Positions 4,672-37,021 of a stretch of 64,000 nt of DNA are shown here, one piece after another. The translations under genes were made by a program, and so were the position numbers. The stretch lies in NCBI GenBank assembly GCA_049968235.1, contig JBMFRC010000006.1, forward strand, positions 64,001 through 128,000, read 5' to 3'. Position 1 is the stretch's first letter. The number at the start of each line of letters is the position of its first letter. The stretch comes from Candidatus Hydrogenedens sp. (GTDB lineage Bacteria; Hydrogenedentota; Hydrogenedentia; Hydrogenedentales; Hydrogenedentaceae). The notes beneath the pieces were generated by a model. That model did not search any database. It was not told the origin of the DNA and was given only the letters and a program-made list of their open reading frames with translations.

Positions 4672-5388
4672 TTATAATTTCACTTTTTTTGTTTCTATTT
4701 CTGAACCAATCGGCTTCTTGTCGTAAGGTCTCTTTCCAACAGGTGTTAAATACCCTTGCCTCTTCACTACAAGGCACCCCGTAGGACAAACAGACATTGC
4801 TTTATCATCTTTTGTCAAATTGGTATCTTTCAATCCATCGTTGGAGTTTACCGAAATTCGCATGTTAATTCCTCGATTTTCAAAACCAAACACATTTTTC
4901 TTGTCCAGATGTATAGATGCTCTTACACAACGACCACATAAAACACAGCGATTCCTATCTAAATAGACATCGGGATGAGTTGCATCGAGTTCTTTTTGAG
5001 CATATAAATAAGGCATCTGTGGAGTTAATAATCCGAGACGATATGCTAAAGCCTGTAATTCACATTTTCCAGCAACCTCACATGAAGGACAGAAATGATT
5101 CCCTTCCACGAATAACATTTCAATAATGTTCCTGCGGAAACCATTCAATTCTTCCGTATTATTTTCTACAACAATCCCTTCAGCAACAGGATATGTACAG
5201 GAATTAACAGGTCTTCCATTTACTTTTACTGTGCAAACTCGACAATGACCACCCGGAGGAAGGTCTTTAAGATAGCACAATCTCGGAATATATATCCCTG
5301 CATCATCTGCAGCTTGAATTATCGTTTTATCCGGAGCAGATTTTACTTCAACTCCATCAATTGTAAAAGTAACTACATTTGTACTCAT
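4672..5388 (-). CDS. hoxU: Diaphorase subunit HoxU (NuoG-like 2Fe-2S/4Fe-4S ferredoxin)
   Basis: 238 aa. N-terminal 2Fe-2S ferredoxin fold (CRVCTVKVNGRP...C) followed by the HFCPSCEVAGKCELQ and CVLCGRCVRA cluster motifs typical of the NuoG N-terminus and HoxU. Confidence 0.85.
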   Translation of the reverse strand: MSTNVVTFTIDGVEVKSAPDKTIIQAADDAGIYIPRLCYLKDLPPGGHCRVCTVKVNGRPVNSCTYPVAEGIVVENNTEELNGFRRNIIEMLFVEGNHFCPSCEVAGKCELQALAYRLGLLTPQMPYLYAQKELDATHPDVYLDRNRCVLCGRCVRASIHLDKKNVFGFENRGINMRISVNSNDGLKDTNLTKDDKAMSVCPTGCLVVKRQGYLTPVGKRPYDKKPIGSEIETKKVKL

Positions 5389-7160
5389 TATTTTACTCCT
5401 TCCATTGTTCTTCCACTTGCTTCTATACCAATTTTCATAGCTTTTTGCAAATCAAAGGTTAATAATTTACCATCTTCTTCTTTGATTCTTTCTGCATATA
5501 AATCTGCAAAATCATAAATAGTTGTTAATACAGGATTTGCAGATGTTTGCCCTAGTCCACAACGACTCATGGATTTTACCGTTTGCGCTATTCTCCGCAA
5601 TTCAGCAAGGCTTTGGGCAGTGCCTTTACCATCCAGTATCTGTCTAAATTTCTTTTCAAGTAGTGTGGTTCCAGCCCTACATGGGACACACCAACCACAA
5701 GATTCTTCGATAAAAAACTCTATAAACTGATGCATACACTCTAATAAATCTCTATTTTTACCAAAAATCATGATAGAACCACCGGTTGGAAGGTCCTCAA
5801 ATGAAATTCGTCTACCAAAATCCTTGGGGGCTACACACTTTCCAGAAGCACCGCCTACTTGAACTGCCTGTGTATCTTTGGCACCTACCAGTTCTAACAG
5901 ATTCTCTATTGTTATTCCATACTCAACCTCATATACTCCTGGATGCTCACAATCACCGGAAACACTTAACATTTTTGTTCCTGTTGAGTCTTTTGTTCCA
6001 ATCTTCGCAAACCATTCTCCGCCCTTTTCTAATATACGAGCAGCACAACATAGCGTTTCCACGTTATTTACAGATGTGGGTTCGCTTTTATATCCTTTCT
6101 GAACAGGGAACGGTGGTCTATCGCGAGGAGCGCCTCTTTTCCCTTCTGCCGACTCAATAAGTGCAGATTCTTCACCACACACATAAGCACCTGCACCCAA
6201 TTGAATTCGAATATCAAAACTAAAATCTTCTCTACCACAAATATGTTCACCTAATAAACCCAAATGTCTTCTTTTTGCTAAAACCTTTTCAAGATTATCT
6301 AATAAATAAGCATATTCTCCACGAAGATACATTATACCTTCTTTAGCACCGATGGCATACCCTGCAATAGTCATGCCTTCAAAAACCAGGTCAGGATACT
6401 CTGTCAATATAACGCGGTCTTTAAATGTTCCGGGTTCCCCTTCATCTGCATTACATATAAGATAACGAATGGGTGATTTTTGCTTTCTACAAAAATCCCA
6501 CTTCATTGCTGTAGGAAAGCCGGCTCCTCCTCTTCCACGAAGCCTTGACTTATTTATTTCTGCAATAACATCTTCAGGTTTCATATTTAACGCATTTCGG
6601 ATTGCCTGTCCGTTCTCTAATGGGGCACATATAACTTCCCCTTCTTTTTTCAAATTCAACAAAACTCGTGCTTGTGGCAAATCAGAAATATCCTTACCTG
6701 CTTTAATATCACTTATAATTTTAGGAACATCCGCAGGTTTAAGATTTGTAAACGGTATATTGTTTATTAGTGCACCTGGAGCCTGGTCACTTAGACCGAT
6801 ACATGAGGTATGAAGCAAAGTAAACAAGTTATCCTTTGTAGTTTCACCAAAGGATATACCTAATTCCTTTTCAAAGGCTTTCCCTACTTCATCAGCCCCT
6901 TTCATTCTTTCTATAACTGCATTAGCAAGTCTTATTACATTCTTCCCAAGAGGTTTTCTTGGTAAAAAAGAATAAAAACTGACCATATCCCGAACCTGTA
7001 CCATAGGCATGTTCAGGACCTCTGCAACATGTGCGGCCATCTCATCCGAAATATAGCCGAATTCTTTAACAATATCGTGGGCTATATTCATCAGATAACC
7101 GCAGTCATTGCCATATTTATTGGCAATGTTTTTGATTTGTTCTCGGTAATGGTGGGTCAT
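5388..7160 (-). CDS. hoxF: Diaphorase subunit HoxF (NuoE-like N-terminus fused to NuoF-like NAD(P)H/FMN/4Fe-4S domain)
   Basis: GAGAYVCGEESALIESAEGKRG FMN/NADH-binding signature of NuoF. ESCGWCVPCR 4Fe-4S motif. N-terminal thioredoxin-like NuoE-like region. AGGAG RBS upstream. 1-nt overlap with hoxU start. Confidence 0.85.
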   Translation of the reverse strand: MTHHYREQIKNIANKYGNDCGYLMNIAHDIVKEFGYISDEMAAHVAEVLNMPMVQVRDMVSFYSFLPRKPLGKNVIRLANAVIERMKGADEVGKAFEKELGISFGETTKDNLFTLLHTSCIGLSDQAPGALINNIPFTNLKPADVPKIISDIKAGKDISDLPQARVLLNLKKEGEVICAPLENGQAIRNALNMKPEDVIAEINKSRLRGRGGAGFPTAMKWDFCRKQKSPIRYLICNADEGEPGTFKDRVILTEYPDLVFEGMTIAGYAIGAKEGIMYLRGEYAYLLDNLEKVLAKRRHLGLLGEHICGREDFSFDIRIQLGAGAYVCGEESALIESAEGKRGAPRDRPPFPVQKGYKSEPTSVNNVETLCCAARILEKGGEWFAKIGTKDSTGTKMLSVSGDCEHPGVYEVEYGITIENLLELVGAKDTQAVQVGGASGKCVAPKDFGRRISFEDLPTGGSIMIFGKNRDLLECMHQFIEFFIEESCGWCVPCRAGTTLLEKKFRQILDGKGTAQSLAELRRIAQTVKSMSRCGLGQTSANPVLTTIYDFADLYAERIKEEDGKLLTFDLQKAMKIGIEASGRTMEGVK

Positions 7161-7545
7161 AACTTCCTTACTCCTACAAAAATTTGACTTACTTATTAAC
7201 TTACCGTTAGGTAAACAACTATATTACTATATCATATTTATCACTATATTTCAATATTGTTCGACATTATTTCAAATATTTTGCAAAAATTGCTAAACTA
7301 TGTTTTTATACGCATAAATTGAGGCTATTTTGTTGCTTCGTTCATTTTATTATCAAAAATTTGGTATTACTATTTAATATATTAGTAATACTATTATTGT
7401 TATTGCACTACACCCGCAAAAATATTTAACTTGTATTTATTCTTAAAAAAATTTCTTTTTTACTTTTCTATTTATTACTTTGATTTTTTTGTCTTTTTTC
7501 TTGTAGAATTAAGGCTTAATTCAAAAGAGGAAAGTTAGAGTAAAA
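7161..7545. promoter_or_regulatory. AT-rich divergent intergenic region between hoxF (-) and ybaB (+); likely holds promoters for both operons
   Basis: 385 bp with no ORF, very AT-rich. Flanked by divergently transcribed operon starts. Several TTGnnn/TAnAAT-like hexamers but no single confident -35/-10 pair. Confidence 0.4.
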
Positions 7546-7884
7546 ATGTTCAATTTTAAAGACATTTCACAGTTAGGTGGTCTCTTAAAAGAGGCTATGC
7601 AAGTTAAACAAAAGATTGAGACTTTAAAAGAAGAATTAGCCAAAGAAATTATTGAAGGCGAATCCGGTGGAGGCATGGTTAAAATTCAAATGAATGGAAA
7701 ATTTGAGGTTCTGAATATATCTATATCTGATGAGGTATTTTCAGAAGGTATGGCGGATAAGTCATTATTAGAAGCACTTATTTTATCCGCTTTTAATGTT
7801 GCTTCCGAAAAAGTCCGTTTGCTTGCAAAAGAGAAAATGAAAGAAATATCAGGTGGTATTGAAATATCAGGATTGATGGATTAG
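7546..7884 (+). CDS. ybaB: Nucleoid-associated protein YbaB/EbfC
   Basis: 112 aa. Typical YbaB pattern (MFNF..I.QLGGLLKEAMQVKQK...GESGGGMVK). AAGAGGAAAG RBS. Confidence 0.85.
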   Translation: MFNFKDISQLGGLLKEAMQVKQKIETLKEELAKEIIEGESGGGMVKIQMNGKFEVLNISISDEVFSEGMADKSLLEALILSAFNVASEKVRLLAKEKMKEISGGIEISGLMD

Positions 7885-8831
7885 TGAGAATACTCTTTTT
7901 TGGAACACCCGAAATTGCAATCCCATCATTACAGAAACTCCATAACCATTTTTTTGTTGTTGGGGTTGTCTGTCAACCGGATAAACCAAGTGGGAGGCAT
8001 CTTCGCATTACTCCACCGCCTATTAAAGTAGAAGCTGAAAAATTGGGTATACCCGTTTTTCAACCTGAAAAAGTTAATGATCCTATATATTTACAGCATT
8101 TTAAGAATTTACAACCTGATATTGGCGTTGTTGTGGCTTATGGTAGATTTTTAAAAGAAGAATTACTATCATTGCCCAAATCAGGATATTTTCTTAATTT
8201 ACATCCCAGCCTTCTTCCGCGATGGAGAGGACCTTCCCCCATACAAACTGCGATACTTGAAGGTGATACGGAAACGGGGGTAACAATTATGAAAATTTCT
8301 ATGGAAATGGATGCCGGAGATATTTTGTTGCAAAAATCTACATCTATTGATATTAATGAAACCGCAGAAGAACTTACTCATAGGTTATCCATAATGGGTG
8401 CGGATTTGTTAATACAATCTATCCATTTAATTGCAGAAAATAAAGCGGTATTTACCCCTCAGGACCATTCAAAGGCAACTTATTGTCATCTCATTGAAAA
8501 AAAACACGGTATTATACATTGGGAGTTACCGGCGTTGACAATACATAATTGCGTTCGTGGCTGCCTCCCCTGGCCCGTGGCTTTTACAAAATTTAAAGGT
8601 GAAATTATACGGATATATAAAACCGAATTAATATCTGGAAGTCAAAATTATAATGATGTAAAATCGGGCACCGTAGTAGAAATAAAAAAAGATAAATGTA
8701 TTGTAAAAACAGGAAAAGGATTGATAGGCATTTGTGTGCTTCAAGCACCAAACAGAAAACCCTTAACTTTTCGTGAATATATAAATGGCAAACCTATATG
8801 TATAGGTGATATTTTTGAGGATGCGTTGTAA
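7884..8831 (+). CDS. fmt: Methionyl-tRNA formyltransferase
   Basis: GTG start. MRILFFGTPE N-terminus. HPSLLPRWRGPSPIQ (SLLP formyltransferase motif). C-terminal Fmt domain. Confidence 0.9.
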   Translation: MRILFFGTPEIAIPSLQKLHNHFFVVGVVCQPDKPSGRHLRITPPPIKVEAEKLGIPVFQPEKVNDPIYLQHFKNLQPDIGVVVAYGRFLKEELLSLPKSGYFLNLHPSLLPRWRGPSPIQTAILEGDTETGVTIMKISMEMDAGDILLQKSTSIDINETAEELTHRLSIMGADLLIQSIHLIAENKAVFTPQDHSKATYCHLIEKKHGIIHWELPALTIHNCVRGCLPWPVAFTKFKGEIIRIYKTELISGSQNYNDVKSGTVVEIKKDKCIVKTGKGLIGICVLQAPNRKPLTFREYINGKPICIGDIFEDAL

Positions 8832-8832
8832 A

Positions 8833-10164
8833 ATGGCTAATGTAGATATTGTCCGTGCTGCTGTAATAAATACTTTATTACGATGGGAGGATGGGAAATT
8901 ACCTATTGACGAATGTATATCAAGGACGCTTCGTCGCAAAACATATAGCACACGTGGGCGTCGTTTTTTTGCATATTTAGTATATGGTACGATTCGTAAT
9001 CTGGATTTACTTGACCACATTATTTCCCAATATTTCAAAAATTCTCTCGATGAACTTCCACGACCTATACTTTATATTTTAAGAATTGCCGTTTTTCAGA
9101 TTTATTTTTGTGATATTGTTACAACACCGGCAGCGGTTCACACCTCAGTGGACCTTGCACGCACCTTTGGACATGCTGGTTTAGCCCGTATGGTAAATGC
9201 AGTGCTTCGGAAACTTCCCGATAATTTTGATGAGATTCCTATTCCATCAAAGGAAGAAGACCTTTTTGGTTATTTATCTATTCGTTATTCTATTCCCAAA
9301 TGGATTTTACAAGAATTTGCACAGAGATTTGGAGAGGAACAACTTGAAGATTTTGCTTTATCCGTTTCTGAAATTCCTTTCCTCTCTATACGAACCAATA
9401 CGATGTTAACAAATCGTGAAGAATTGAAAAAAAGATTAAAAAAGATTGGGATTGAAGCACAACCCGTAACACCGATTCCGGAAGAATTATCTTTAAATTC
9501 TACTTATCTTCTAACGGATTGTCCTTTGATGCGTCAGGGTTTATATACAATACAAGACCCTGCTTCCATGCTTAGTGTCCATGCACTAAATCCCCAGGCG
9601 GATGACATAATTTTGGATATTTGTTCTGCTCCAGGAACAAAAACAACCCATATTGCCGAATTCACACGCAATCAATCAAAAATATTCTCAATTGAAATCC
9701 ATCCGGGAAGAATACAGCGAATCTATGAAAATATTCATCGATTAAAATGTGAAAATATATTCCCTATTTGTTCAAGTGGTACCTATCTCCCCTTTCCGGA
9801 TGAGACCTTTGATAGAATTTTGGTAGATGCTCCATGTTCCGGATTAGGGACTTTACGAAGGAATCCAGACATTAAATATAACATTAAACAGGAATCTTTG
9901 CAAAGATTATCAAAATTGCAAAAGGCTATTCTCACAGAAGCATGTAGAGTTTGTAAAAAAAATGGTGTAATTGTATATTCTGTGTGTACCTTTACAACAG
10001 ACGAAACCTTAAATGTAGTGAATGAATTTATTGAAGAAAAAAAATTAATTCCTATAAATGCACCGGAGTTACTTGACCCGTGGAAAATTCAGACAGGACA
10101 GTATCAAACAATTCCAAAAAATCTCTGGGACGGCTTCTTCTTGACGGTATTTCAAAAGCCATAG
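8833..10164 (+). CDS. rsmB: 16S rRNA (cytosine967-C5)-methyltransferase RsmB/Sun
   Basis: N-terminal NusB-like domain. SAM-binding DICSAPGTKT. Catalytic DAPCSGLGTLRRNPD and YSVCT motifs. The track ORF starts at GTG 8806; an ATG at 8821 or 8833 (directly after the fmt stop) is more plausible. Confidence 0.8.
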   Translation: MANVDIVRAAVINTLLRWEDGKLPIDECISRTLRRKTYSTRGRRFFAYLVYGTIRNLDLLDHIISQYFKNSLDELPRPILYILRIAVFQIYFCDIVTTPAAVHTSVDLARTFGHAGLARMVNAVLRKLPDNFDEIPIPSKEEDLFGYLSIRYSIPKWILQEFAQRFGEEQLEDFALSVSEIPFLSIRTNTMLTNREELKKRLKKIGIEAQPVTPIPEELSLNSTYLLTDCPLMRQGLYTIQDPASMLSVHALNPQADDIILDICSAPGTKTTHIAEFTRNQSKIFSIEIHPGRIQRIYENIHRLKCENIFPICSSGTYLPFPDETFDRILVDAPCSGLGTLRRNPDIKYNIKQESLQRLSKLQKAILTEACRVCKKNGVIVYSVCTFTTDETLNVVNEFIEEKKLIPINAPELLDPWKIQTGQYQTIPKNLWDGFFLTVFQKP

Positions 10165-11204
10165 TTAACACAGTTCTATTTTTCTTTAATCTTTTTCTGT
10201 GGTTAATTCAATGGTCGTTGGCACTACTTGTCTTTATAGCGGTTATGGCAGGTTCAGGGTATTATATATACACACAAGCTCTAAGTGGTGGAAAGTATAT
10301 CATCGTTCCTAAAATTACCGATATGCCGGTTATGGAAGCATCGAAAAAACTTTTTGAAGTAGGATTGGAATTAGGTCCTTATATACCAGTTACACACGAT
10401 ACAATACCCAAATACTATGTTATTAGCCAAAAACCGGAACCTGGGAAAGTTGTTCGATTAGGTAGAAAAGTATTTCCCGTAGTAAGTGCTGGTCCACCTA
10501 ATGAAAAAGTCCCTGATTTAAGAGGCAAAACCCTTGACGAGGCTCAAAAATTAATTGAATATAATAGTAGATTTAAATTAGGAAACATTGCACGAATTAA
10601 TCGTGATGAACCAGCAGAAACAGTTATTTCTCAGGACCCTCCACCCGACACAGAAGCGACGCAGGGAACATTTATAAATTTACTTATAAGTGCAGGAACA
10701 CAAACGGAAACAATAATAATGCCTAATATTGTAGGGAAAAACATACAGGAAGTAGAAGAACTGTTAAAACCTTATGATATCAAATTAGTCCCCAATATAG
10801 TTGATTCCCCCAGTTCCCCGGAAAATATCGTAATAGAACAGGACCCACCTGCGGATACACCTATTGTCCGTGGACAAATGGTAGTTTATACCATTAAATC
10901 CACAGGAACCGCTCCCCTACCGGATGCGCGTTATCAAACTGAAGTTACTTATACTATGAATGATGATTGGGCTGTAAAAGAAGTTCGTGTTGAACTGGTG
11001 GACCGACATGGAAATCGCGAAATTTTATGGCAGAAACCACGATTATATGATACACTTTCACAAATTCGATATGTTCGAGGAACACCGTTAAATATCAAGG
11101 TTACTTATGTAAGTAAAGCAATGGTGGAAATATTTGTTGATGAAGTTAAAGTAGCATCTTTTGAATTAGAAGGAGGAAATCCTCCAAAATTGTTGCAACC
11201 TTAA
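10080..11204 (+). CDS. Membrane-anchored PASTA-domain protein (3-4 PASTA repeats, no kinase or PBP domain)
   Basis: Short cytoplasmic tail, one TM (LFFFNLFLWLIQWSLALLVFIAVMA), then repeated ~65-aa PASTA-like units (PKITDMPVMEASKKLFEVGLEL.., VPDLRGKTLDEAQKLIE.., MPNIVGKNIQEVEELLKPY..). Sits in the pknB slot of the conserved fmt-rsmB-...-rpe neighbourhood. 85-nt overlap with rsmB makes the exact start uncertain. Confidence 0.65.
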   Translation: MENSDRTVSNNSKKSLGRLLLDGISKAIVNTVLFFFNLFLWLIQWSLALLVFIAVMAGSGYYIYTQALSGGKYIIVPKITDMPVMEASKKLFEVGLELGPYIPVTHDTIPKYYVISQKPEPGKVVRLGRKVFPVVSAGPPNEKVPDLRGKTLDEAQKLIEYNSRFKLGNIARINRDEPAETVISQDPPPDTEATQGTFINLLISAGTQTETIIMPNIVGKNIQEVEELLKPYDIKLVPNIVDSPSSPENIVIEQDPPADTPIVRGQMVVYTIKSTGTAPLPDARYQTEVTYTMNDDWAVKEVRVELVDRHGNREILWQKPRLYDTLSQIRYVRGTPLNIKVTYVSKAMVEIFVDEVKVASFELEGGNPPKLLQP

Positions 11205-11240
11205 ATGATTGGTAAGATTTAAATTCAGGAGTTATGTAAG

Positions 11241-11906
11241 ATGCTCAATAGAGATAGAAATATCAAGATTTCCCCATCTATCTTATCTTGTGATTTTAGT
11301 AAGATGGGAGAAGAAATTACACAATTAATTGAAGCAGGTGCGGATTATATCCATTTTGATGTAATGGATGGACATTTTGTTCCTAATATTACAATAGGAC
11401 CGCCCATAATTGCTTCCTTGCGAAGATACTGTTCTGTACCAATGGATGTTCATCTTATGATAGATAATCCGGAAGAATATGTTGATTCTTTTGCTGATGC
11501 AGGTGCGGATATAATAACCGTTCATGTTGAAGCAACAAATCATCCTCATCGTTTAATACAACACATTAAAGATATTGGATGTCAGGCGGGCATTGTATTA
11601 AATCCTTCTACTCCCGAAAGTCGTATTGAGTTTTTAGTCGAAGATATAGATATGGTTCTTGTAATGACCGTAAATCCGGGGTTTGGAGGTCAGAAGTTTA
11701 TTCCGGATATGCTTCGTAAAATTAAAGCCATTCGTGCAATGATAGGAGAACGCGATTTAGAAGTAGATGGTGGAATTGATGAAAAAACAGCACCGGAGGT
11801 CATCAAAGCAGGAGCAAATGTTCTCGTCGCAGGTTCCTATGTTTTCAATAATTCCTCTTATAAAGCGTCCATTAAAAAATTAAAAGAAAGTATAAATTTT
11901 ACTTGA
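11241..11906 (+). CDS. rpe: Ribulose-phosphate 3-epimerase
   Basis: [29 protein letters not shown] signature. 221 aa. RBS CAGGAG. Confidence 0.9.
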
Positions 11907-11979
11907 CTTTAAACTTTTATTAGTGTATATTATATTTAGAGTTTTTAGTGAAAAATAAACTAAAAAAAGGGTAAATTTT

Positions 11980-13140
11980 ATGAGAAGATTTTTCTTAATA
12001 GCTGTAACAATAATCATCACAAGTTTTCTATTCGGCTGTCCTTACAATGGTGTAATCAAAGATGGTGTTGTAATTGTTGACCAGTTACCTGGTGTAACCG
12101 TTTCTTCCGTTTCACCAGACCAGATTGTCTTAAATTCACAAGGGTCAGTTCCTGTAACAACGGGAGACATTATAATTGGTCAATATGGTGATACGGGTTA
12201 CCTTCGTAAGGTTACCGCAGTAGGACAAAAAGGTACAGAGGTTGTTGCTGTAACTGAGCCTGCTTCTTTAGAAGATGCCATTCAAGAAGGTATGTTGATG
12301 ACCAGTGTTAAGTTTGATGTAAATGATTATGTAAAAGCAGGTGTTTTACCCAAAGATGCAAAAGCGACTATAGTAAATTTTAGTGGGAAAGAAATTTATC
12401 GTGGAAATGGCATACGAATCACTGTAGACAAGGGTATATTGGATTGCACTCCACAGGTTGCAATTGTAGCAGACTATAAAGATTTTAAATTGAGGAAATT
12501 TGACTTAACAACAACGGGAACTATTACGCTTACTTTAGACCTTAAAATTGCTCTGGATAATGGAACACCAATCTCTCAGGAATGGGATATTATTCCACCA
12601 ATAATTCATCCTTTTGCGGCAAGTATTGGACCTGTTCCTGTTTACGGTCGCGTAACATTACGTTTCCCATTTGGATTATATGGACAGATGACTGGTGATA
12701 CAAGTGTGAAATCTGGTTTTGATATAAAAGATAATTTCACATTGAAGGCAGTATATGATACAGGCAGTTGGGATGGGTCAAAAGCAGATTTATTTAATTT
12801 CACTTTTGATGGACATCCACTTACATGGAATATTGATATAGGTGGTACTGCTCAAGCATATATTAAAGCCATAGTTGAGTTAACTCTCTATGAATCAGCA
12901 GAAGCAGTAATATTTGCTAAGCCGTATATCACATCGAATATCCATGTATTTCCTTCTCCTGCAAGTATCGAGATTATTGGCGGTGTGGATGCAGGTGCGT
13001 ATGCAGGTTTAAGTGTATTGGGACATAATATAATTGGCAAGAGTTTCTACTGGAATGGTCCCAGTAAGTTATTATATAGAGGTGTTCAGGACTATTCTGA
13101 CCCATTACCTTGGACAAGTGGTTCTATAGATTTGTGGTAA
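11980..13140 (+). CDS. Hypothetical lipoprotein
   Basis: Signal peptide with lipobox LFGC. 386 aa, beta-rich, no recognisable catalytic motif. First gene of a secreted-protein cluster. Confidence 0.55.
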   Translation: MRRFFLIAVTIIITSFLFGCPYNGVIKDGVVIVDQLPGVTVSSVSPDQIVLNSQGSVPVTTGDIIIGQYGDTGYLRKVTAVGQKGTEVVAVTEPASLEDAIQEGMLMTSVKFDVNDYVKAGVLPKDAKATIVNFSGKEIYRGNGIRITVDKGILDCTPQVAIVADYKDFKLRKFDLTTTGTITLTLDLKIALDNGTPISQEWDIIPPIIHPFAASIGPVPVYGRVTLRFPFGLYGQMTGDTSVKSGFDIKDNFTLKAVYDTGSWDGSKADLFNFTFDGHPLTWNIDIGGTAQAYIKAIVELTLYESAEAVIFAKPYITSNIHVFPSPASIEIIGGVDAGAYAGLSVLGHNIIGKSFYWNGPSKLLYRGVQDYSDPLPWTSGSIDLW

Positions 13141-13160
13141 ATCAAAATTGAAAATTTTAA

Positions 13161-13200
13161 AAATGTGACTTGAACAAAGGGTTCAGGTCACATTTTTTAT
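13161..13200 (+). terminator. Rho-independent terminator after the lipoprotein gene
   Basis: 15-bp stem AAATGTGACTTGAAC / GTTCAGGTCACATTT (one G-U) with 5-nt loop, followed by TTTTTT. 20 nt downstream of the stop at 13140. Confidence 0.55.
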
Positions 13201-13226
13201 TATTGAATAGATTGTTGTTTGTGGCT

Positions 13227-14333
13227 ATGCCGTGTAAAAAAATCTTTTGTATATTTATTTTTTCTATCCTATTTTTTCGCTTCTCTTTTTCAGCACAAGG
13301 ACAATATCATTCTTCTGATTATTTGGAACCCCATTTTGTTATTCAATTACCTGAATTACTCCGTTTGGTGCAAATTTATAATTTTGGTTCTTATCATTGC
13401 GACAGTTCATCCGAAGACGGTTACGCACTTGGAAATGGTGATACATCCTGCAAACCTCATAGTTCGGATTATAATCCACAGGATTGGACTATATCTTTTC
13501 AAGAGGTATTACGATTGGCTCAATTTTACAAATCCAGCTCGTATCATATTGATTTATCAGGAGAAGATGGCTTTCAGCCGGGGAATGAAACTGAACCTGT
13601 TCCGGGAACAGAAAAAACTTTTTTAGGGATTCCTTTCGTTTGGATTCCTTCGGGGTCCTTTTACATGGGAACAACAAAAAGTTCAACGGAATTAGTTCAA
13701 TTATATGGCGGAAGTTCCTCTTTATATAGTTCTGAATATCCACAACATTTGGTTGCTATCTCTAACGGTTTTTGGATGAGCCAGACTGAAATTACACAAA
13801 AACAATGGACAGATATAATGGGATACAATCCATCAAATAATATAGGTGCCAATCTCCCTGTAGAAAATTTATCGTGGAATGAATGCCAGAAATTTATTGA
13901 AAAACTTAATAAATTAGGAAATGGGATATTTCGTTTGCCTACTGAAGCCGAATGGGAATATGCGTGTCGTGCAGGTTCTAATTCTGAATTTTGTTTCGGT
14001 GATGATGCAGAACAATTAGACAATTACGGATGGCATTTTTATAATAGTAACTATCAAACACATCCTGTAAAACAAAAATTACCCAATGTATGGGGATTAT
14101 ATGATATGCATGGAAATGTATGGGAATGGTGTCAGGACTGGTATGATACTGAGTATTATCAATACTCCCCTACTCTTGACCCTACTGGACCTGCAACAGG
14201 TAAATATAAAGTTTTACGAGGAGGCACATGTTTACGGACATCTGCCCGTTGTAGGTCTGCTTTTCGTTCATGGAATATACCCGATTTAACTATGGCTGAC
14301 CAAGGATTTAGAATATGCAGAATTTCCGATTAA
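13227..14333 (+). CDS. Secreted FGE/SUMF1-family (formylglycine-generating enzyme-like) protein with N-terminal tandem Cys-containing module
   Basis: ATG 13227 gives signal peptide MPCKKIFCIFIFSILFFRFSFSAQG. The track ORF begins at an upstream TTG inside the terminator hairpin. C-terminal FGE-sulfatase fold (WEWCQDWY, RGGTCL...RCRSAFR, GFRICR). N-terminal ~100 aa consist of two copies of a module also present at the C-terminus of the next gene. Confidence 0.75.
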   Translation: MPCKKIFCIFIFSILFFRFSFSAQGQYHSSDYLEPHFVIQLPELLRLVQIYNFGSYHCDSSSEDGYALGNGDTSCKPHSSDYNPQDWTISFQEVLRLAQFYKSSSYHIDLSGEDGFQPGNETEPVPGTEKTFLGIPFVWIPSGSFYMGTTKSSTELVQLYGGSSSLYSSEYPQHLVAISNGFWMSQTEITQKQWTDIMGYNPSNNIGANLPVENLSWNECQKFIEKLNKLGNGIFRLPTEAEWEYACRAGSNSEFCFGDDAEQLDNYGWHFYNSNYQTHPVKQKLPNVWGLYDMHGNVWEWCQDWYDTEYYQYSPTLDPTGPATGKYKVLRGGTCLRTSARCRSAFRSWNIPDLTMADQGFRICRISD

Positions 14334-17300
14334 TATTCATTTTTCTATCTGGAGTATTTCTTTTTCACACATCCTCTTCTGGACATAATATAGGTATCTC
14401 TTCCTTATATTTTGAACCCAACCATAATCGTTTTGTTTCCGATGTGTTTTATTTTTCCATAGGAAATACTGTTTCTGTAGCATGTTATCAAAATGCTCTT
14501 GTGTTTTTTACATACAATTCTCAAGAATATTACAGAGTCGTTTTTCCTAAAGGTAAGCCTAAAGAAATTACAGGCAATATCCCTCTTCCATCATATTCAA
14601 CATATTTCTATGGGACGAATTCTACTCCTGCAATAGCAGTCCATTATAAAGCAGTTATATATAAAGAAATATTTCCGGGTATCGACTTATATTTATATGA
14701 AAAAGGAGGTAATTTTAAGTTCGATTTTATCGTTCATCCCGATTCAAAACCCGATGCGATTAGTATTAATTTTGAAACTCTCGATATACATAAGCAAAAG
14801 TGGATTTCTAAGAATCCTGAAATTGATGAAAACATTATTCGAATTGTCCACGATAATGTAAAACTAGATTTTTATGCCCCTTGTGCCTTTCAATGGATAA
14901 ATGGAATATCCCACAAAATACCTATTCGTTTATCGTATGACAATGGGGTGAAATTTTATATTCCTGAATCCTCATACAATCCCAATTATCCATTGCTTAT
15001 TGACCCTACTTTGTTGGCGGGCACATATTTGGGAGGGAATAATACCGACAAGATTATTGATGTAAAAACAGATACTGCAGGTAGCATCTATTTAGTTGGT
15101 GAAACAAAATCGCTTAATTTTCCTACCAGTGCTGGTTCTCTTCAAACAAACTATTCTGGTGGAGATATAACAGGAGATATATTTATTGCAAAATTAAATC
15201 CTCTTGCCAATTATCCCCTCTTTTCCACATTTTTGGGTGGTTCCGGGGATGATAGTGCCACAGCAATTAGAATTGATGAGCAAAGAAATATATATATAAC
15301 AGGGATAACTTCTTCTTCGGATTTTCCTACAACGACAAATGCCTATCAAACAACAAAAGCAGGTGGAAGAGATGCTTTTATTACAAAAATCAATTCAGAT
15401 GCTACCGAATTAATCTATAGTTCTTACATAGGAGGCAGTGGTGATGAAAGCATAATGGATTTCACTTTTCTTCCCGATAATAATATTGTTCTAACAGGCT
15501 GGACACAATCATCGGATTTTCCCATAACCGGAAGTTCTTCATTAAATTCTATGTTTAGCGGTGGAGGACTGGACGGATTTTTGTTTAAATGTAATTCATC
15601 ATTTCAACCTATATGGAGTGGTTTTATAGGAACAGCCGGTATAGATGTTTGTAAAACAATAGTAAATTTTGGTGGTGATATTATTTTAAGTGGATACACA
15701 TCCTCAATGAATTTTCCAACTACGCAGGGCGTATTTCAGATTTCTTATGGAGGTGGAAATTACGATTCATTTATAATGAAACTATCAGGTAATAATGCAT
15801 CTACAATATCTTCTTCTTATTTTGGGGGAAGTCTAATTGACCTATGTCAGGCTTTGATTTGTGATAGTTATGGAAACATATACATCACAGGAGAGACATC
15901 TTCCACCAACTTTCCAGTTAGTATCACATCGTTTCAGATTGGATATGGTGGTGGAGAAAGAGATGCTTTTGTTAGTAAACTATCTCCCAATTTAGACCAG
16001 ATAATTTTCAGTACTTATTTAGGAGGAAGTAAGACAGAATCAGGGCTCGGAATCGAATTGGACACATTATCACGAGTATATGTTGTTGGTTATACATATT
16101 CAGGAGATTTCCCTGTAATACCTGGGACATTACAACCTTTATATGGTGGTAATCAGGATGCATTTTTTGCATGCTTGAACCCTAATGGAAATACATTACA
16201 ATATAGTACTTTTTATGGAGGTAAAGGAGAAGAAAAAGCAAGGTCTGTCTATATTTCTAATTCCAATGTAATGTATACAGTAGGAGAAACTGCATCCAAT
16301 CTACTACCTATAACATCAGGGACTTTCCAGACAAGTTTTGGAGGAGGAACACTCGATGGTTTTCTCGCCTGTATTGATGTATCACCTCCTACAAATGAGG
16401 GAGAAGGACAAATAGAAGGGAATATTGAAGGAACCCCAGAAGGTTCGTTAGAAGGTGAAGGTTTAAGGGTATGGACAATAGCACCTGTGGAACGGGTTGT
16501 AACAGAAGGAGCAACAACTACTTTCATTATTGGTGTATCCGGTTATGTGGGAACTGTAAATTATCAATGGCAATTTAAGAGTATCATTGGAGAAGAATAT
16601 ATTCCTATTTTTAACAGCAATAGTCCTATGTTAACGTTGCGTAATATTCAATTTTCATCTTCTGGCTATTATCGATGTAGGGTAAGTGATTCTTTAGGGA
16701 CAGTATTCTCTTCTCCTTTCAAATTAACAGTTCTACAAAGTTTAGAAGGCTCAACAGAGGGGTTATTAGAAGGAAATATAGAAGGTATTATTGAAGGAAG
16801 TGCAGAAGGAACTACAGAAGGTTTATTAGAGGGAGTAGAAGAAGGGATACTAGAAGGCATTTCAGAAGGTTCAAATGAAGGGATTCTTCTTGAAGGTGAG
16901 GGTATAATAGAAGAAGGTCTAATGGAAGGTGAAGGTGCTTATTATCCCTGTGGTTTTGAGATAAATGGAAATGAAACTCATAGTCTCTTAAAAGATAAGG
17001 CTCAAAATCTTTATTATATTTATGTGCCTAATGAAGGGACATTAAACGACCTTATTGTTAATATTTCACTAACCCATGATAATTTACAGCAGATATTAAT
17101 TCAAATTGTATCCCCCTATGGAACAGAAGTTTTTCTACTGATTTATCCAGCACAAGGCGGAACTTCACTACAAAATACAAACTTTGACGATAATGCGGAA
17201 ATAAGTATAAGTGATGGAGTTAGTCCTTTTACAGGTAGTTACAAACCTGTGGGATATCTGGGAGTTTTACGAGGAGAAAATTTACAAGGTACATGGATGT

Positions 17301-17698
17301 TGAGAATTGTGGATTCCGAGACAGGTAGTAGAGGTTATCTTGAATCATGGAAATTGTTATTCAATACATATGCCTGTTCTGAAGAAGGAAATCCTGAAGA
17401 AGGTGAAATTGTAATGTATCATTCAGCAGATACCGATAAGAATCATTCTTTTTCCCTTGTTGAAGTGTTGCGGGTAATACAAATCTTCAATTTTGGTAGT
17501 TATCACTGTGATATTAATGGAGAGGATGGATATGGATTGGGTATAGGAGATCAGAATTGCAATCGCCATAGTTCTGATTATACAGGACCCTATTGGTCCA
17601 TTACTTTCCCCGAACTTTTGCGTTTAATACAGTTATTTAATATAGGTGGGTATGTATCCTGTTCAGATACAGAAGACGGTTTTTGTCCTATTCAATAG
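14315..17698 (+). CDS. Large secreted SBBP beta-propeller repeat protein with Ig-like domain, proprotein-convertase P-domain, EG-repeat linkers and C-terminal tandem module
   Basis: Signal peptide. About 11 SBBP-type repeats (GG.GDD.A.AI..D..GNIYITG.T.S.DFPTT). Ig-like domain (YQWQF...YYRCRVSD). P_proprotein domain (GTWMLRIVDSETGSRGYLESWKLLF). Two xEGx repeat blocks. Last ~95 aa homologous to the N-terminus of the FGE-like protein. Confidence 0.75.
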   Translation: MQNFRLIFIFLSGVFLFHTSSSGHNIGISSLYFEPNHNRFVSDVFYFSIGNTVSVACYQNALVFFTYNSQEYYRVVFPKGKPKEITGNIPLPSYSTYFYGTNSTPAIAVHYKAVIYKEIFPGIDLYLYEKGGNFKFDFIVHPDSKPDAISINFETLDIHKQKWISKNPEIDENIIRIVHDNVKLDFYAPCAFQWINGISHKIPIRLSYDNGVKFYIPESSYNPNYPLLIDPTLLAGTYLGGNNTDKIIDVKTDTAGSIYLVGETKSLNFPTSAGSLQTNYSGGDITGDIFIAKLNPLANYPLFSTFLGGSGDDSATAIRIDEQRNIYITGITSSSDFPTTTNAYQTTKAGGRDAFITKINSDATELIYSSYIGGSGDESIMDFTFLPDNNIVLTGWTQSSDFPITGSSSLNSMFSGGGLDGFLFKCNSSFQPIWSGFIGTAGIDVCKTIVNFGGDIILSGYTSSMNFPTTQGVFQISYGGGNYDSFIMKLSGNNASTISSSYFGGSLIDLCQALICDSYGNIYITGETSSTNFPVSITSFQIGYGGGERDAFVSKLSPNLDQIIFSTYLGGSKTESGLGIELDTLSRVYVVGYTYSGDFPVIPGTLQPLYGGNQDAFFACLNPNGNTLQYSTFYGGKGEEKARSVYISNSNVMYTVGETASNLLPITSGTFQTSFGGGTLDGFLACIDVSPPTNEGEGQIEGNIEGTPEGSLEGEGLRVWTIAPVERVVTEGATTTFIIGVSGYVGTVNYQWQFKSIIGEEYIPIFNSNSPMLTLRNIQFSSSGYYRCRVSDSLGTVFSSPFKLTVLQSLEGSTEGLLEGNIEGIIEGSAEGTTEGLLEGVEEGILEGISEGSNEGILLEGEGIIEEGLMEGEGAYYPCGFEINGNETHSLLKDKAQNLYYIYVPNEGTLNDLIVNISLTHDNLQQILIQIVSPYGTEVFLLIYPAQGGTSLQNTNFDDNAEISISDGVSPFTGSYKPVGYLGVLRGENLQGTWMLRIVDSETGSRGYLESWKLLFNTYACSEEGNPEEGEIVMYHSADTDKNHSFSLVEVLRVIQIFNFGSYHCDINGEDGYGLGIGDQNCNRHSSDYTGPYWSITFPELLRLIQLFNIGGYVSCSDTEDGFCPIQ
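16396..16465 (+). repeat. 12-nt tandem coding repeat (xEGx)n, block 1
   Basis: gaagg-containing 12-mers encoding EGEGQIEGNIEGTPEGSLEGEG. Confidence 0.6.
16741..16940 (+). repeat. 12-nt tandem coding repeat (xEGx)n, block 2 (~16 units)
   Basis: ttagaaggctca acagaggggtta ttagaaggaaat atagaaggtatt ... encoding LEGSTEGLLEGNIEGIIEGSAEGTTEGLLEGVEEGILEGISEGSNEG... Confidence 0.7.
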
Positions 17699-30323: not shown

Positions 30324-33300
30324 ATGGGTAAATACAAGAATATGGTTGCACAATTATTATTCATTCTTTCAATTACTTTAACATCTTATTGCTTTTCACA
30401 GGATAATTTGAAAAATACTTCTTATTTAGAAAATTATTTTTTCCATTCTGAACAGAACAACCATTATTTTGCTTTTTCAAAAAATCAATACTTTGAAATT
30501 ACACCGGGTAGTCTAAAAATATGGATATGGAATCCTATAAAAAATGCCTTTTGTGAACCTGTAGAAATTTGTTTTCTTAACAATGAGAGTAATGCTGTCC
30601 TGGGAAGTGAAAAATCTGATGTAACATACAGTTATTATTCAGGAAATAATCCGGATAATTGGATACATAATAATTTTGCCTATAAGAAATTATGTATTCC
30701 CAACATTTACAAAGGAATTGACCTTGAATTTTACTTTAATAATCATGAGTTAGAGTTTGATTTCATCATTAACTCTCAAACAGATACTAATCAAATCCTT
30801 TGGAGAATCTGTGGGAATAATGTTGAATCACATATTGAAAACAATCAATTAGTTATTACAAATAACGAAGGCTATACATACACTTTTAGCATTCCAGAAA
30901 TATACAAATCCGCAATTAAAAATCCTGCGAGTATTCTTTCACATAATGTTTCTTTTTTAGATTTAGATGGGAATACATACCAAATCTATGTTGATATTCA
31001 TGATAGAAATTCCGAATTGCTTATAGACCCAATACTTACATTATCAACATATATAATTTTTCCGTCATCCAACTGGCCTTCTTCGCTATTTACCAAAATG
31101 TGTTTAGACTACTATAACAATATTGAGGATATTGCTTTAATAGGGGGAGCCATTGAATTTCCCGGTTCTTCTGGAACGGATGTATCAGGATTTTTATGTA
31201 AATTATCCCCACAATTAGGGAAAACACATCATATTGTTTTTATAAATGGAATGGGTGAAGATTATATAAATTTCGTTACTCATTTTATAAATATGATGAA
31301 TGAATTTATCGTTATAGGTGGGAAAACAAATTCTCTTAACTTTCCGACTGTTAACCCAGTCCAACCTTTAAATAGCATTCTGAACAGAAATGGAACATCT
31401 GGTGAATTTGATGGTTTTCTTATGATGTTTGACAAAGACCTAAGGATAACTTTTTCTACTTTTGTCGGTGGGAGTGGATATGACTCTATTGAAGATATTA
31501 ACATTAACACCAATAATTTATTTTTTGCAGGGAATACAAATTCTACTGATTTACCTCTGGTAAATTCTTCATTAAAAACTCAAAAAGGACTACTTGCAGA
31601 TGGTTTCTGGGGTATACTGAAACTTACGGACCCATTGGAGTGTCGATATATAACAAAATTAGGCATAGATGGCATTGAAATCAAGGATATTGAATCATAT
31701 TCAACAATTATATATCTTTGTGGAAATACAAGCGTAGGTTTACCGTATTTTAACCCAATAGTCCCGGAAACACCTGTTCAAGGGCAGGACATCTTTATTC
31801 AAACTTATTCATATTCTGAAGGCACAACAATCCCTGATATTAGTTTATTATCTTCTTTATTCTTAGGCGGTTCGGATAATGATATATTGGAAAAATCTAT
31901 TCTTCTGAATACAAATACCCTTTGTTTGGCAGGGAATACATATTCAAATGATTTGCCAGAACCTGTCATTTCGACAATACCTGAAAAAATACCTGAAAAA
32001 ACTTATCCTTTTCTTATATTAGTTAATCCAACAGTAACTCAAAAATTAATAGGTACTCACTATATCTTTGGTAATGGAACCGATATAATAACTGATATAA
32101 AAACACCTAGTACCGATTCAAGCACATTTTTCATTGTAGGTTATACCAATAGTTATTTTGAAAATTTTAATTGGAATAACACCGAATTTACTTCCAATCC
32201 GTTTGATACCTCGCTCAATAATGGGGCAAATGAAAACTTTGATGCAATGGTATGGAGACTTCAATGGAACAGCATAGAAAATACAATCACGCCTACATGG
32301 GGAACATTTTTAGGGGGAACTTTAAATGATACAGCATTGTCCATAGGTACTGTTGATAGTAATCACATTTGCTTTTCGGGTATAACAAATTCTCCTGATT
32401 TCCCATTACAGGGGTGTCAAACTATAGCACCAGCATATTTACCAAGCCATTATTTATCTGCTTTTAATATATCGGGTAAAGTTATATATGTAAATCCTGA
32501 CAGTTCTGTTGATCCCACTGATGGCAGTTCATGGGAAAAAGGTTACCATACTATTTCAGAAGCCATTAGTTCTGCTAACAACTATGATGAAATATGGATA
32601 AAATCTGGATATTACAATGAAAGGCTTACAATTAATGGATTTTCAAATCTTATCTTGCGAGGTGGTTTTTCAGGTTTAGAAACGAATATAGATGAAATAA
32701 ATCCATGGGAAAATCCAACAAAGATTTCCCCTATACAGGTAAAAGGAACGGGAAACTTAGGAACACCCACCTTAAATATTACATCGTGCATGAATATTGT
32801 ATTAAATGGACTTGTTTTTGAAAGTGGAACTAATATACTTGGTGATGGTGGAGCCATAAATATTTCTAATTCCACTGTTCGTATCCTATGTTCTCAATTT
32901 TACAAAAACAATTCAAATGGGAACGGTGGGGCTATCTATATTAATAATTCGTATGCAAACATCGCAAACTGTGTATTTGTTCAGAATTCTTGTTCAGGAA
33001 ACGGTTCGGGTATTTCTGCTAACGAATCTACAGTTAAAATTATACATTGCACATTTGCTAACAATTTTAATTCCGTTAGCGAAGATGTTAGCACTGTAGA
33101 CATTCAAGGTTCTACATCTATGCTAATGATACTCAACTCTATAATCTGGGCTAATGAGGGAAATACTCATGTTCAGATAAATTATCCTGAAATTATTCCT
33201 CCTGTAAATCTTCTATTCAGCCATTCAATTATCCAAAATTTCAGTTTATTATCTACACCACCATCACCCAATACCGTACTTGATACTAACCCTCTATTTA

Positions 33301-35974: not shown

Positions 35975-37021
35975 TTAAGGCTCAGATTTTTTGTTGTGCT
36001 GTTTCTTTTTAATTGCCTTACGGTAATGCATAACCGCATCTGTGTGGGTATCAATATCTTTACTAAATGTATGTGTCCTCCCATCTGCATTAGATACAAA
36101 ATAAAGATATTCCCCTAATTCAGGAAATAAAGCAGAGCGTAAACTGGTAAGACCGGGATTTGATATAGGAGTAGGAGGTAAACCTTTATATTTATAGGTA
36201 TTATATGGGGAATCCACTTCCTTATCGGCATTGGTTAGTAATACTCCATATTTTTGATTGGCATATTGCAATGTCGCATCAATTTGGAGAGGCATGTCTT
36301 TCTTTAATCGATTATATATAACTTGTGCAATAAGAGGTCGTTCTTCATCTATTTTTGCTTCTTCTTCAATTAAAGAGGCTATTATAACTTTTTGATATTT
36401 CTCTTCATTGGAAAGTTCAAAGCCATTTTCCTCCATCAATTTTTTCCATTCTTTATCAAACTGACTAATCATTACATCAGCAAGGGTTTTAGCATCAGGT
36501 ATCTCTTCAAATAGATATGTCCCCGGCATTAAAAATCCTTCTACGGTAGGACCCGCGATATTTTTCTCTTTTGCATACTCACTAGAATTTACAATTTTTA
36601 GAAATTCTTCCGGGTCTGGAGCAATCATTGATATTTGTTTATTTGTTAAACCCTCCGGAACAGTTATTTTATATGCACATATAGGACGAATAGGACCTTT
36701 TAGTAGAAGTTCATATATTTGTTGAACAGAATATCCTTTGGGAATAGAATATATACCATATTTTATATCTTTATCCCCTCCTTTTATTCTTAACAAGGCT
36801 AAAAAGAAAATTTCATGGGGAATAAGTCCTTTTTCTTTAAGTAGAAACGCAATATCTTGTGCGGTGTTTCCTTTATTTACGGTTATTTCAACAGGTTCTC
36901 CCGGAACCCCTTCCCTTACTATATATACATACCCCCCTGCAATAACAATGCCCATTACCAATAATAAACATATCACTATAAATAAACCCACAAGTAATAT
37001 TTTTAATATGATTCTTTTCAT
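35975..37021 (-). CDS. mltG: Endolytic murein transglycosylase MltG (YceG-like)
   Basis: N-terminal TM anchor then YceG domain (LYFVSNADGRTHTFSKDIDTHTDAV C-terminal catalytic region). Confidence 0.85.
   Translation of the reverse strand: MKRIILKILLVGLFIVICLLLVMGIVIAGGYVYIVREGVPGEPVEITVNKGNTAQDIAFLLKEKGLIPHEIFFLALLRIKGGDKDIKYGIYSIPKGYSVQQIYELLLKGPIRPICAYKITVPEGLTNKQISMIAPDPEEFLKIVNSSEYAKEKNIAGPTVEGFLMPGTYLFEEIPDAKTLADVMISQFDKEWKKLMEENGFELSNEEKYQKVIIASLIEEEAKIDEERPLIAQVIYNRLKKDMPLQIDATLQYANQKYGVLLTNADKEVDSPYNTYKYKGLPPTPISNPGLTSLRSALFPELGEYLYFVSNADGRTHTFSKDIDTHTDAVMHYRKAIKKKQHNKKSEP

Follow-up and report, generated by a model that had tools for sequence, protein, structure and literature searches.

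A kinase-less membrane PASTA protein with a PrkC-type ectodomain occupies the interval between rsmB and rpe in Hydrogenedentota

The gene located between rsmB and rpe in a 64,000-nucleotide (nt) stretch of Candidatus Hydrogenedens sp. (assembly GCA_049968235.1, contig JBMFRC010000006.1, positions 64,001 to 128,000 of the forward strand; hereafter, the window) encodes a 374-amino acid (aa) protein (10080..11204, + strand) in which a transmembrane (TM) helix is followed by three PASTA repeats and an immunoglobulin (Ig)-like domain, and which carries no kinase domain. Its assignment as a kinase-less TM-3xPASTA-Ig-like gene is based on the open reading frame (ORF), on three Pfam PASTA stretches and on orthologs with 34-97% identity in 33 Hydrogenedentota loci. 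By analogy with characterized PASTA proteins, we propose, with a probability of roughly 55%, that the product acts as a phosphorylation-independent periplasmic scaffold or localization factor for cell-wall growth or division. The identity, start codon and genomic context of the gene are well supported, and the mechanism is one that we infer.

The ORF listing of the window defines a gene that starts with GTG, ends with TAA and overlaps the 3' end of rsmB by exactly 85 nt (10080-10164), just as claimed in an initial annotation made from the sequence alone. Pfam PASTA (PF03793) aligns to three stretches of the product with 98 bits (gathering cut-off 23.2, E 3e-28), so that the chance, raised in that annotation, of PASTA models not recognizing these repeats did not materialize. 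The NCBIfam model of PASTA kinases, NF033483 (PknB_PASTA_kin), aligns to the protein solely at profile positions 338-562/563, which correspond to its TM and PASTA half, and yields 110 bits against a cut-off of 450. The three repeats, delimited with Pfam, the secondary structure of an AlphaFold model and matches to PknB and Stk1 PASTA structures, span residues ~72-137 (10293..10490, + strand), ~140-205 (10497..10694, + strand; the best Pfam stretch, at residues 143-204) and ~210-274 (10707..10901, + strand). The AlphaFold model (predicted local distance difference test [pLDDT] of 82.9 for the full-length protein) presents three helix-plus-strand units in tandem, consistent with the small alpha/beta PASTA fold, and Foldseek matches it to the single PASTA domains 3ouv and 5e0y with TM-scores of 0.79-0.83.

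The initial annotation had described an N-terminal TM helix followed only by PASTA repeats. The helix and the repeats hold, but the repeats are not all that follows, as residues ~283-372 (10926..11195, + strand) are predicted to form an additional Ig-like beta-sandwich that has no Pfam match. In the AlphaFold prediction this C-terminal domain comprises ~90 residues, is all-beta with seven strands and, when modeled alone, reaches a pLDDT of 91.2 and a predicted TM-score (pTM) of 0.80. Profile-profile alignment with hhalign places it on the last 62 residues of both a PASTA kinase (P0030) and a Synergistaceae PASTA-only protein (P0040), a weak match in the right position (E 1.5e-4 each, ~52% probability), and returns no significant alignment with the PASTA protein of a 6.4-Mb chromosome (P0048).

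N-terminal to the repeats, alignments delimit a putative cytoplasmic tail of 26 residues (10080..10157, + strand), which is mostly encoded inside rsmB. Its first 15 residues are variable, a conserved GRxLLDxxS motif begins at residue 17, and the tail as a whole contains five lysine or arginine residues and three aspartate or glutamate residues. The long hydrophobic helix that follows (residues 27-65; 10158..10274, + strand) is defined by hydropathy, which is highest at residues 38-56, by the AlphaFold model, in which residues 5-68 form a single unbroken helix, and by a W-x-(I/V)-(Q/R/K)-W-(S/T) motif that is kept phylum-wide in the Hydrogenedentota alignments. This helix is probably a membrane anchor preceded by an interfacial segment. 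To our knowledge, PASTA domains are extracytoplasmic in every studied protein, and this precedent, together with the basic tail, points to an N-in topology in which the PASTA and Ig-like domains would be periplasmic. A two-span hairpin with cytoplasmic PASTA repeats was considered and set aside on account of the single continuous helix in the model and the same extracytoplasmic precedent. Assignment as a penicillin-binding protein (PBP) was likewise ruled out, given that neither Transpeptidase nor PBP_dimer has a Pfam match in the protein and that TIGR02214 (spoVD_pbp) reaches only 15.9 bits where the cut-off is 688.

The best structural match of the protein is the complete PrkC/Stk1 ectodomain (PDB ID: 3py9). 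Like the window protein, PrkC and Stk1 (of B. subtilis and S. aureus, respectively) are held by one membrane anchor and display three PASTA repeats that end in an Ig-like domain. Their genes occupy the same rsmB-rpe slot, and kinases of this type show 27-35% sequence similarity to the window protein in the PASTA region. The differences lie on the cytoplasmic side, where the window protein lacks both the Hanks kinase domain and the juxtamembrane linker and retains a cytoplasmic part of only ~26 residues, and in the locus, which lacks adjacent PP2C, rlmN and rsgA genes and in which the PASTA gene starts inside rsmB. The hosts differ as well, since Hydrogenedentota are presumed, which is our assumption, to be diderm. 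Given the kinase-TM-P1P2P3-Ig-like architecture of B. subtilis PrkC (PMC5786024), the window protein is the natural counterpart of the TM-P1P2P3-Ig-like PrkC construct engineered in that same work.

Two other groups of PASTA proteins resemble the window protein less closely. PknB of M. tuberculosis (PDB IDs: 2kui, 5e12) shares the arrangement of PASTA repeats as beads on a string, and 2kui is the best PDB match by sequence (E 6e-27), but PknB has four repeats, a kinase domain and no Ig-like end domain, and its gene belongs to an operon of the fhaA-fhaB-pstP-rodA-pbpA-pknB type that does not lie beside rsmB or rpe. The class B PBPs with PASTA repeats (PBP2x, PBP2B, SpoVD and S. aureus PBP1) also display extracytoplasmic PASTA repeats in the absence of a kinase, and their structures match the window protein with E-values of 1e-4 to 1e-5. 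These PBPs contain two repeats, a transpeptidase domain and a dimerization domain, whereas the window protein contains three repeats and neither of those domains.

The proposal that this gene sits where other genomes encode PknB is borne out by direct comparison of loci. The locus of kinase P0030 (L052) reads def-fmt-DUF116-Zn_peptidase_2-rsmB-rlmN-PP2C-Pkinase/PASTA-rsgA-rpe, and the corresponding part of the window reads rsmB-PASTA-rpe. A second comparator, the locus of the actinobacterial-type kinase P0022 (L051), reads fhaA-fhaB-PP2C-rodA-pbpA-pknB. The initial annotation was also right in finding neither a kinase nor a phosphatase gene in the slot, where rsmB and rpe are the direct neighbors of the PASTA gene. 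Using as tblastn queries five full-length PASTA kinases from our homolog list and the kinase domain of M. tuberculosis PknB, we obtained no kinase-domain match in the 64-kb window, nor across 50 related loci with their flanks. The search for kinase remnants that the annotation had suggested thus returned matches in PASTA regions only, and Pfam reports no Pkinase match in the 374-aa ORF. No PP2C gene adjoins the PASTA gene, the rest of the window not having been searched for this family. Since rsmB overlaps the PASTA gene and only 36 nt separate the latter from rpe, neither a kinase nor a PP2C gene would fit in the slot. A sequencing or frameshift error hiding an in-frame kinase, which the annotation had envisaged, is ruled out because the DNA upstream of the GTG is fully taken by rsmB. 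As a separate observation, one Hydrogenedentota metagenome-assembled genome (MAG; L014) contains a second PASTA-repeat match (10922-11593) ~5 kb downstream of its main PASTA gene; this match reaches the contig end and no kinase-domain match was found there.

To describe the conservation of the gene across the phylum we used 33 Hydrogenedentota loci, 30 of which come from a scan of GTDB species genomes and three from metagenome contigs. The protein is 95% identical to its counterpart in Candidatus Hydrogenedens terephthalaticus (L006, AWNW01000002.1), and identities across the loci range from 34% to 97%, with alignments that remain full-length down to 34%. A word-indexed search of 5.8 billion proteins retrieved 14 close PASTA-only orthologs (44-97% identity), with lengths of 290-375 aa as called by various pipelines. 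The window protein and the rest of the family have in common the GRxLLD motif, the W-x-I-Q-W helix, the three PASTA repeats and the C-terminal beta domain. According to tblastn searches with the neighboring genes of the window, rsmB lies directly upstream of the PASTA gene in all 33 loci, and the order ybaB-fmt-rsmB-PASTA-rpe is kept for as far as the contigs extend. Among close relatives, the ratio of nonsynonymous to synonymous substitution rates (dN/dS, Nei-Gojobori) of the gene body is 0.03-0.09, which denotes strong purifying selection and hence a gene that is functional, not decaying.

These results bear on the interpretation of the gene as a membrane "sensor stump" left by loss of the kinase, according to which a PknB/PrkC gene would have recently lost its kinase domain and its PASTA portion would be drifting into a pseudogene. 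Such a history would agree with the position of the gene, where Firmicute-type genomes have a PP2C phosphatase and a PASTA kinase, and with an ectodomain architecture that is that of PrkC. It is nevertheless highly improbable in view of the dN/dS values, of a full-length protein kept among the same neighbors over 33 loci, of the lack of any detectable kinase remnant or of intergenic space for one, and of the conservation of the start codon described below, and we consider this part of the initial annotation to be contradicted.

Two irregularities were noted among these loci. The rsmB match in the Candidatus H. terephthalaticus locus is split over two frames (residues 1-55 and 54-452) at ~4886-4890, leaving an open frame of only 431 codons, which corresponds to a frameshift or assembly error in this reference draft genome. 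Furthermore, seven loci titled "uncultured Nitrospirales bacterium" (L009, L011, L014, L016, L017, L024 and L035) carry, despite that title, a Hydrogenedentota-type ybaB-fmt-rsmB-PASTA(-rpe) locus with 42-81% identity and the same GTG overlap; these taxonomic assignments are apparently mistaken.

To locate the start of the gene, the PASTA frame was read back to the preceding stop codon in the 33 Hydrogenedentota loci. The GTG at 10080..10082 (+ strand), which in the window lies across the Pro-Trp codons of rsmB (ccG|TGg), is present in every one of them, 16-17 codons ahead of the GRxLLD motif. The rsmB residue that precedes the Trp varies among P, Q, R, K, S and T, and its codon nonetheless ends in G every time (CCG, CAG, CGG, AAG, TCG or ACG). 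Derived from the same loci, the expected frequency of a G-ending codon for the amino acid concerned is 0.04-0.78 per locus, and ~0.1-0.3 in AT-rich genomes; the most conservative product of these frequencies, which counts a single event per amino-acid class and takes the highest frequency for each, is 0.03. The GTG is preceded, at a distance of 11 nt, by a Shine-Dalgarno (SD)-like GGAG (10065..10068, + strand), which falls inside rsmB codons for G-P-E and has a spacing equal to that of the AGGA motifs preceding fmt and rsmB; a GGAG is found in most related loci. This analysis of the ribosome-binding site, which the initial annotation had recommended, revealed no SD-like motif before the alternative starts at 10125, ~10218 and 10245.

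The 85 nt shared by both genes (10080..10164, + strand) are dual-coding and hold the final 28 codons of rsmB and, in another frame, the initial 28 of the PASTA gene; the overlap measures 85-109 nt in all 33 loci. Between the members of the two closest pairs, the rsmB frame shows synonymous differences of 0.06 within the overlap versus 0.49-0.65 in the rest of rsmB. At greater distances, changes pile up at positions that are synonymous in rsmB and non-synonymous in the PASTA frame, from which it follows that the first ~15 PASTA residues are weakly constrained and that the start codon is fixed. Moreover, because the conserved GRxLLD motif precedes the rsmB stop codon, some overlap with rsmB is unavoidable.

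A different start would turn the overlap into an annotation artifact, with the protein beginning at CTG 10125, TTG 10218 or ATG 10245. Long same-strand gene overlaps frequently prove to be mispredictions, database homologs have been called with shorter N-termini (319-361 aa), and protein-level conservation is weak over the first 15 residues, all of which would be compatible with a downstream start. Such a start is nonetheless improbable, given that all 33 loci keep the GTG in spite of the six amino acids encoded by the overlapping rsmB codon, that it is the only candidate preceded by GGAG, and that GRxLLD imposes an overlap in any case. The codon just before GR, which is chosen by some gene callers, is CTG, TTG, GTG, ATG or a non-start codon, and is canonical in only about one third of the loci, whereas the TTG at ~10218 and the ATG at 10245 would cut into or delete the conserved membrane helix. 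Judging from these sequence comparisons, translation most likely starts at GTG 10080, in disagreement with the alternative proposal that the true start is non-canonical, and we conclude that the long overlap is no artifact of ORF calling but a real feature of the whole phylum.

Kinase-less PASTA genes were also found in a comparable context in other lineages. The order rsmB-PASTA-rpe is seen in Synergistaceae and in Deferrisomatales and Thermodesulfobacteriota, with the Deferrisomatales protein consisting of a TM segment, three PASTA repeats and, at the C-terminus, a beta region; the ATG of its gene overlaps the rsmB stop by 4 nt. The 6.4-Mb chromosome presents the order fmt-PASTA-rpe-rsmE and one further contig that of PASTA-rpe-bamD, both without a kinase. 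PASTA-rpe is found in five of six Ignavibacteria loci, the sixth ending at a contig edge, and kinase-less genes in Clostridia MAGs lie in fmt-Zn_peptidase_2-rsmB-rlmN-PASTA-rsgA-TPK. The only exception found is a PASTA protein of Endomicrobiia, the gene for which is not beside rpe. The slot is thus filled by kinase-less proteins of an old class with a wide distribution, and its occupancy in Hydrogenedentota is not a local accident.

These proteins, which are labeled as "PASTA domain-containing proteins" in Synergistaceae, Deferrisomatales, Thermodesulfobacteriota, Ignavibacteria, Longimicrobium and Clostridia MAGs, resemble the window protein in lacking a kinase and having an N-terminal anchor. 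They contain three or four repeats, in some cases with a C-terminal beta domain, and most are encoded beside rpe, rsmB, fmt or rsgA. In contrast to the Hydrogenedentota family, they are only 26-32% identical to the window protein, most of them have very short cytoplasmic tails (~4-25 residues), and their genes start after rsmB or fmt or overlap by 4 nt, compared to 85-109 nt in Hydrogenedentota; the Ignavibacteria and Endomicrobiia versions additionally lack the C-terminal domain. A profile search of 1.84 billion representative sequences returned 32,255 PASTA matches, with the top ranks dominated by giant multi-PASTA proteins and with ~20 full-length clusters of the family. The giant proteins (P0058-P0073 and others) are metagenomic sequences of 1000-5200 aa with up to 25 PASTA-like stretches (e.g., the 2161-aa P0058).

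The breadth of this distribution raises the question of evolutionary direction, which is separate from that of mechanism. A PASTA-only membrane protein could have been the ancestral occupant of the fmt-rsmB...rpe array, with the kinases of monoderms arising later through fusion to a Hanks kinase. The presence of the kinase-less TM-3xPASTA-beta-domain layout in this slot in at least five distinct lineages speaks for such a sequence of events. Two Clostridia MAGs speak against it. Their PASTA-only genes (L049 4001-5101, 366 aa; L050 4001-5248, 415 aa) encode a basic, non-kinase cytoplasmic region of ~100 residues and are flanked directly by rlmN and rsgA in an operon of Firmicute type without PP2C and kinase, and they look like cases of kinase loss within Clostridia. 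The PASTA repeats are, in addition, short and only 25-35% identical, and we regard an ancestral status of the kinase-less form as unlikely.

The proposed role as a phosphorylation-independent periplasmic factor would unfold as follows. The conserved GTG inside the 3' end of rsmB would initiate translation of the PASTA protein within an array of housekeeping genes. With an internal GTG, a longish SD spacing and occlusion by the ribosomes translating rsmB, synthesis would probably be low and tied to the operon. The helix would then anchor the protein in the inner membrane in an N-in orientation, leaving the PASTA and Ig-like domains to face the periplasm. There, the PASTA repeats may bind peptidoglycan stem peptides or lipid II, dock cell-wall enzymes, or both, as they do in PknB, PrkC, StkP and class B PBPs. 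Any transmembrane communication would proceed through the conserved membrane helix and not through an enzymatic domain, and in Hydrogenedentota the conserved helix, together with the GRxLLD segment, may also engage a partner in the membrane or the cytoplasm. The same-slot relatives of other phyla have almost no cytoplasmic part, which argues for a shared function that is periplasmic or membrane-based and does not involve phosphorylation.

Studies on related proteins provide precedents for such activities. Binding of muropeptides or lipid II by PASTA repeats is known for PknB (PMC6428115) and PrkC (PMC5786024), with the PknB ectodomain binding lipid II of the meso-diaminopimelic acid (mDAP) type (PMC6428115), and peptidoglycan is a ligand of the PASTA domains in S. 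aureus PBP1 (PMC9426605). In PBP2B, the PASTA repeats reinforce its contact with DivIB (PMC7654742), and StkP communicates with the hydrolase LytB (PMC10434722). Furthermore, a kinase-less PrkC fused to green fluorescent protein (GFP-TM-P1P2P3-Ig-like) still localizes at septa and poles, for which its TM segment is already sufficient (PMC5786024).

Several considerations weigh against a phosphorylation-independent scaffold. Its mechanism is drawn from homologous domains with only 25-35% identity, PASTA function is species-dependent, with muropeptide binding not always leading to a measurable output (Pompeo et al., PMC5786024), and a partner kinase may be encoded outside the searched window and the flanks of the related loci. 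The last of these would be central to a split system, in which the protein would act as a sensor that relays a muropeptide or lipid II signal through the helix and GRxLLD to a separately encoded kinase or transducer. The conservation in Hydrogenedentota of a ~45-residue cytoplasmic and membrane-proximal segment with the W-x-I-Q-W motif would fit this arrangement, as would the recruitment of PrkC by partners through its TM segment (PMC5786024). The negative kinase searches in the window and in the flanks of 50 loci do not fit it, nor does the near absence of a cytoplasmic part in the same-slot relatives of other phyla, and no co-conserved signaling gene was seen near the PASTA gene in the compared neighborhoods. 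We regard a split system as unlikely, although it is the most plausible of the alternatives considered here, and favor the scaffold or localization factor.

In the window, the PASTA gene is the fourth of an array of five genes on the + strand. The array opens with ybaB/ebfC (7546..7884, Pfam YbaB_DNA_bd) and fmt, encoding methionyl-tRNA formyltransferase (7884..8831; TIGR00460, 305 bits), continues with rsmB, encoding the 16S rRNA m5C967 methyltransferase (8806/8833..10164; supported by Pfam and by NCBIfam RsmB with 362.9 bits, cut-off 319), and closes after the PASTA gene with rpe, encoding ribulose-phosphate 3-epimerase (11241..11906; TIGR01163, 305 bits). The mechanically called rsmB ORF opens at GTG 8806, 26 nt into fmt. 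An ATG at 8833 (MANVD...), located past the fmt stop and with an AGGA 11 nt ahead of it, coincides with the place where homologs begin and is the likely true start of rsmB. A scan of 7100-13300 for promoters and terminators gave counts not above those of shuffled sequence and no terminator-like site from ybaB to rpe.

Some features of the surrounding DNA are recorded here as independent observations. HoxF-like and HoxU-like genes of the NADH-dehydrogenase type are located at 4672..7160 (- strand) and upstream of there, and in a related locus (L001) HoxF/HoxU-like genes are followed by the small and large subunits of a NiFe hydrogenase. This bidirectional hydrogenase cluster is divergent from the ybaB-fmt-rsmB-PASTA-rpe array, and both are conserved together in close relatives. 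Downstream of the array, a protein with an FGE-sulfatase domain (13170..14333, + strand) carries twice at its N-terminus a ~45-residue motif (HSSDY...LLRLxQxxNxGSYHCD...EDGY) that recurs twice in the neighboring 1127-aa DUF7948/SBBP/P_proprotein protein (14315..17698, + strand), this time at the C-terminus; the motif falls outside Pfam coverage and could be a shared docking or sorting module. The sole other PASTA match in the window is a single repeat at the C-terminus of a predicted surface protein of 1877 aa (30324..35957, + strand), which contains DUF7948, three Bact_surface_Ig-like domains, CarboxypepD_reg and PASTA at residues 1768-1830, and ends in a short hydrophobic tail. It represents a second, unrelated use of PASTA in this genome, possibly as a cell-wall attachment module. 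The gene for MltG is located at 35975-37021.

The protein is not categorically new, in that databases already label such sequences as "PASTA domain-containing protein" and PASTA occurs in many non-kinase architectures. A literature search on kinase-less, stand-alone or diderm PASTA proteins, or on PASTA beside rpe or rsmB, found nothing relevant, in agreement with the statement of the initial annotation that PASTA-only membrane proteins have no defined function; a heliorhodopsin preprint names PASTA merely as a generic sensor domain. Three features are without a description in the literature that we searched: a PrkC-ectodomain architecture minus the kinase, its location in the rsmB-rpe slot across diderm lineages, and a GTG start with an 85-109-nt overlap. 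The last of these provides a clean phylum-wide case of a real long same-strand overlap, and automatic gene callers shorten many of these proteins, with database versions of 319-361 aa that are missing the tail and sometimes also the membrane helix.

PASTA kinases are regarded as a hallmark of Gram-positive cell-wall signaling, and the role of the PASTA module itself is still debated. A natural kinase-less TM-P1P2P3-Ig-like protein, present in this operon slot in several phyla of the Gram-negative type, offers a system in which to ask what the ectodomain does without phosphorylation, and it also bears on how the kinase and sensor halves joined or parted. Tentatively, the fmt-rsmB...rpe operon of many diderm phyla may carry a kinase-less ortholog of the PrkC/Stk1 ectodomain, possibly in its ancestral form, with a phosphorylation-independent role for PASTA and, in Hydrogenedentota, with synthesis hard-wired to that of rsmB by way of the 85-109-nt overlap. 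If this is true, monoderms would have acquired their Hanks kinase later, or the kinase would have been lost repeatedly, and the PASTA module would be the part conserved in envelope growth.

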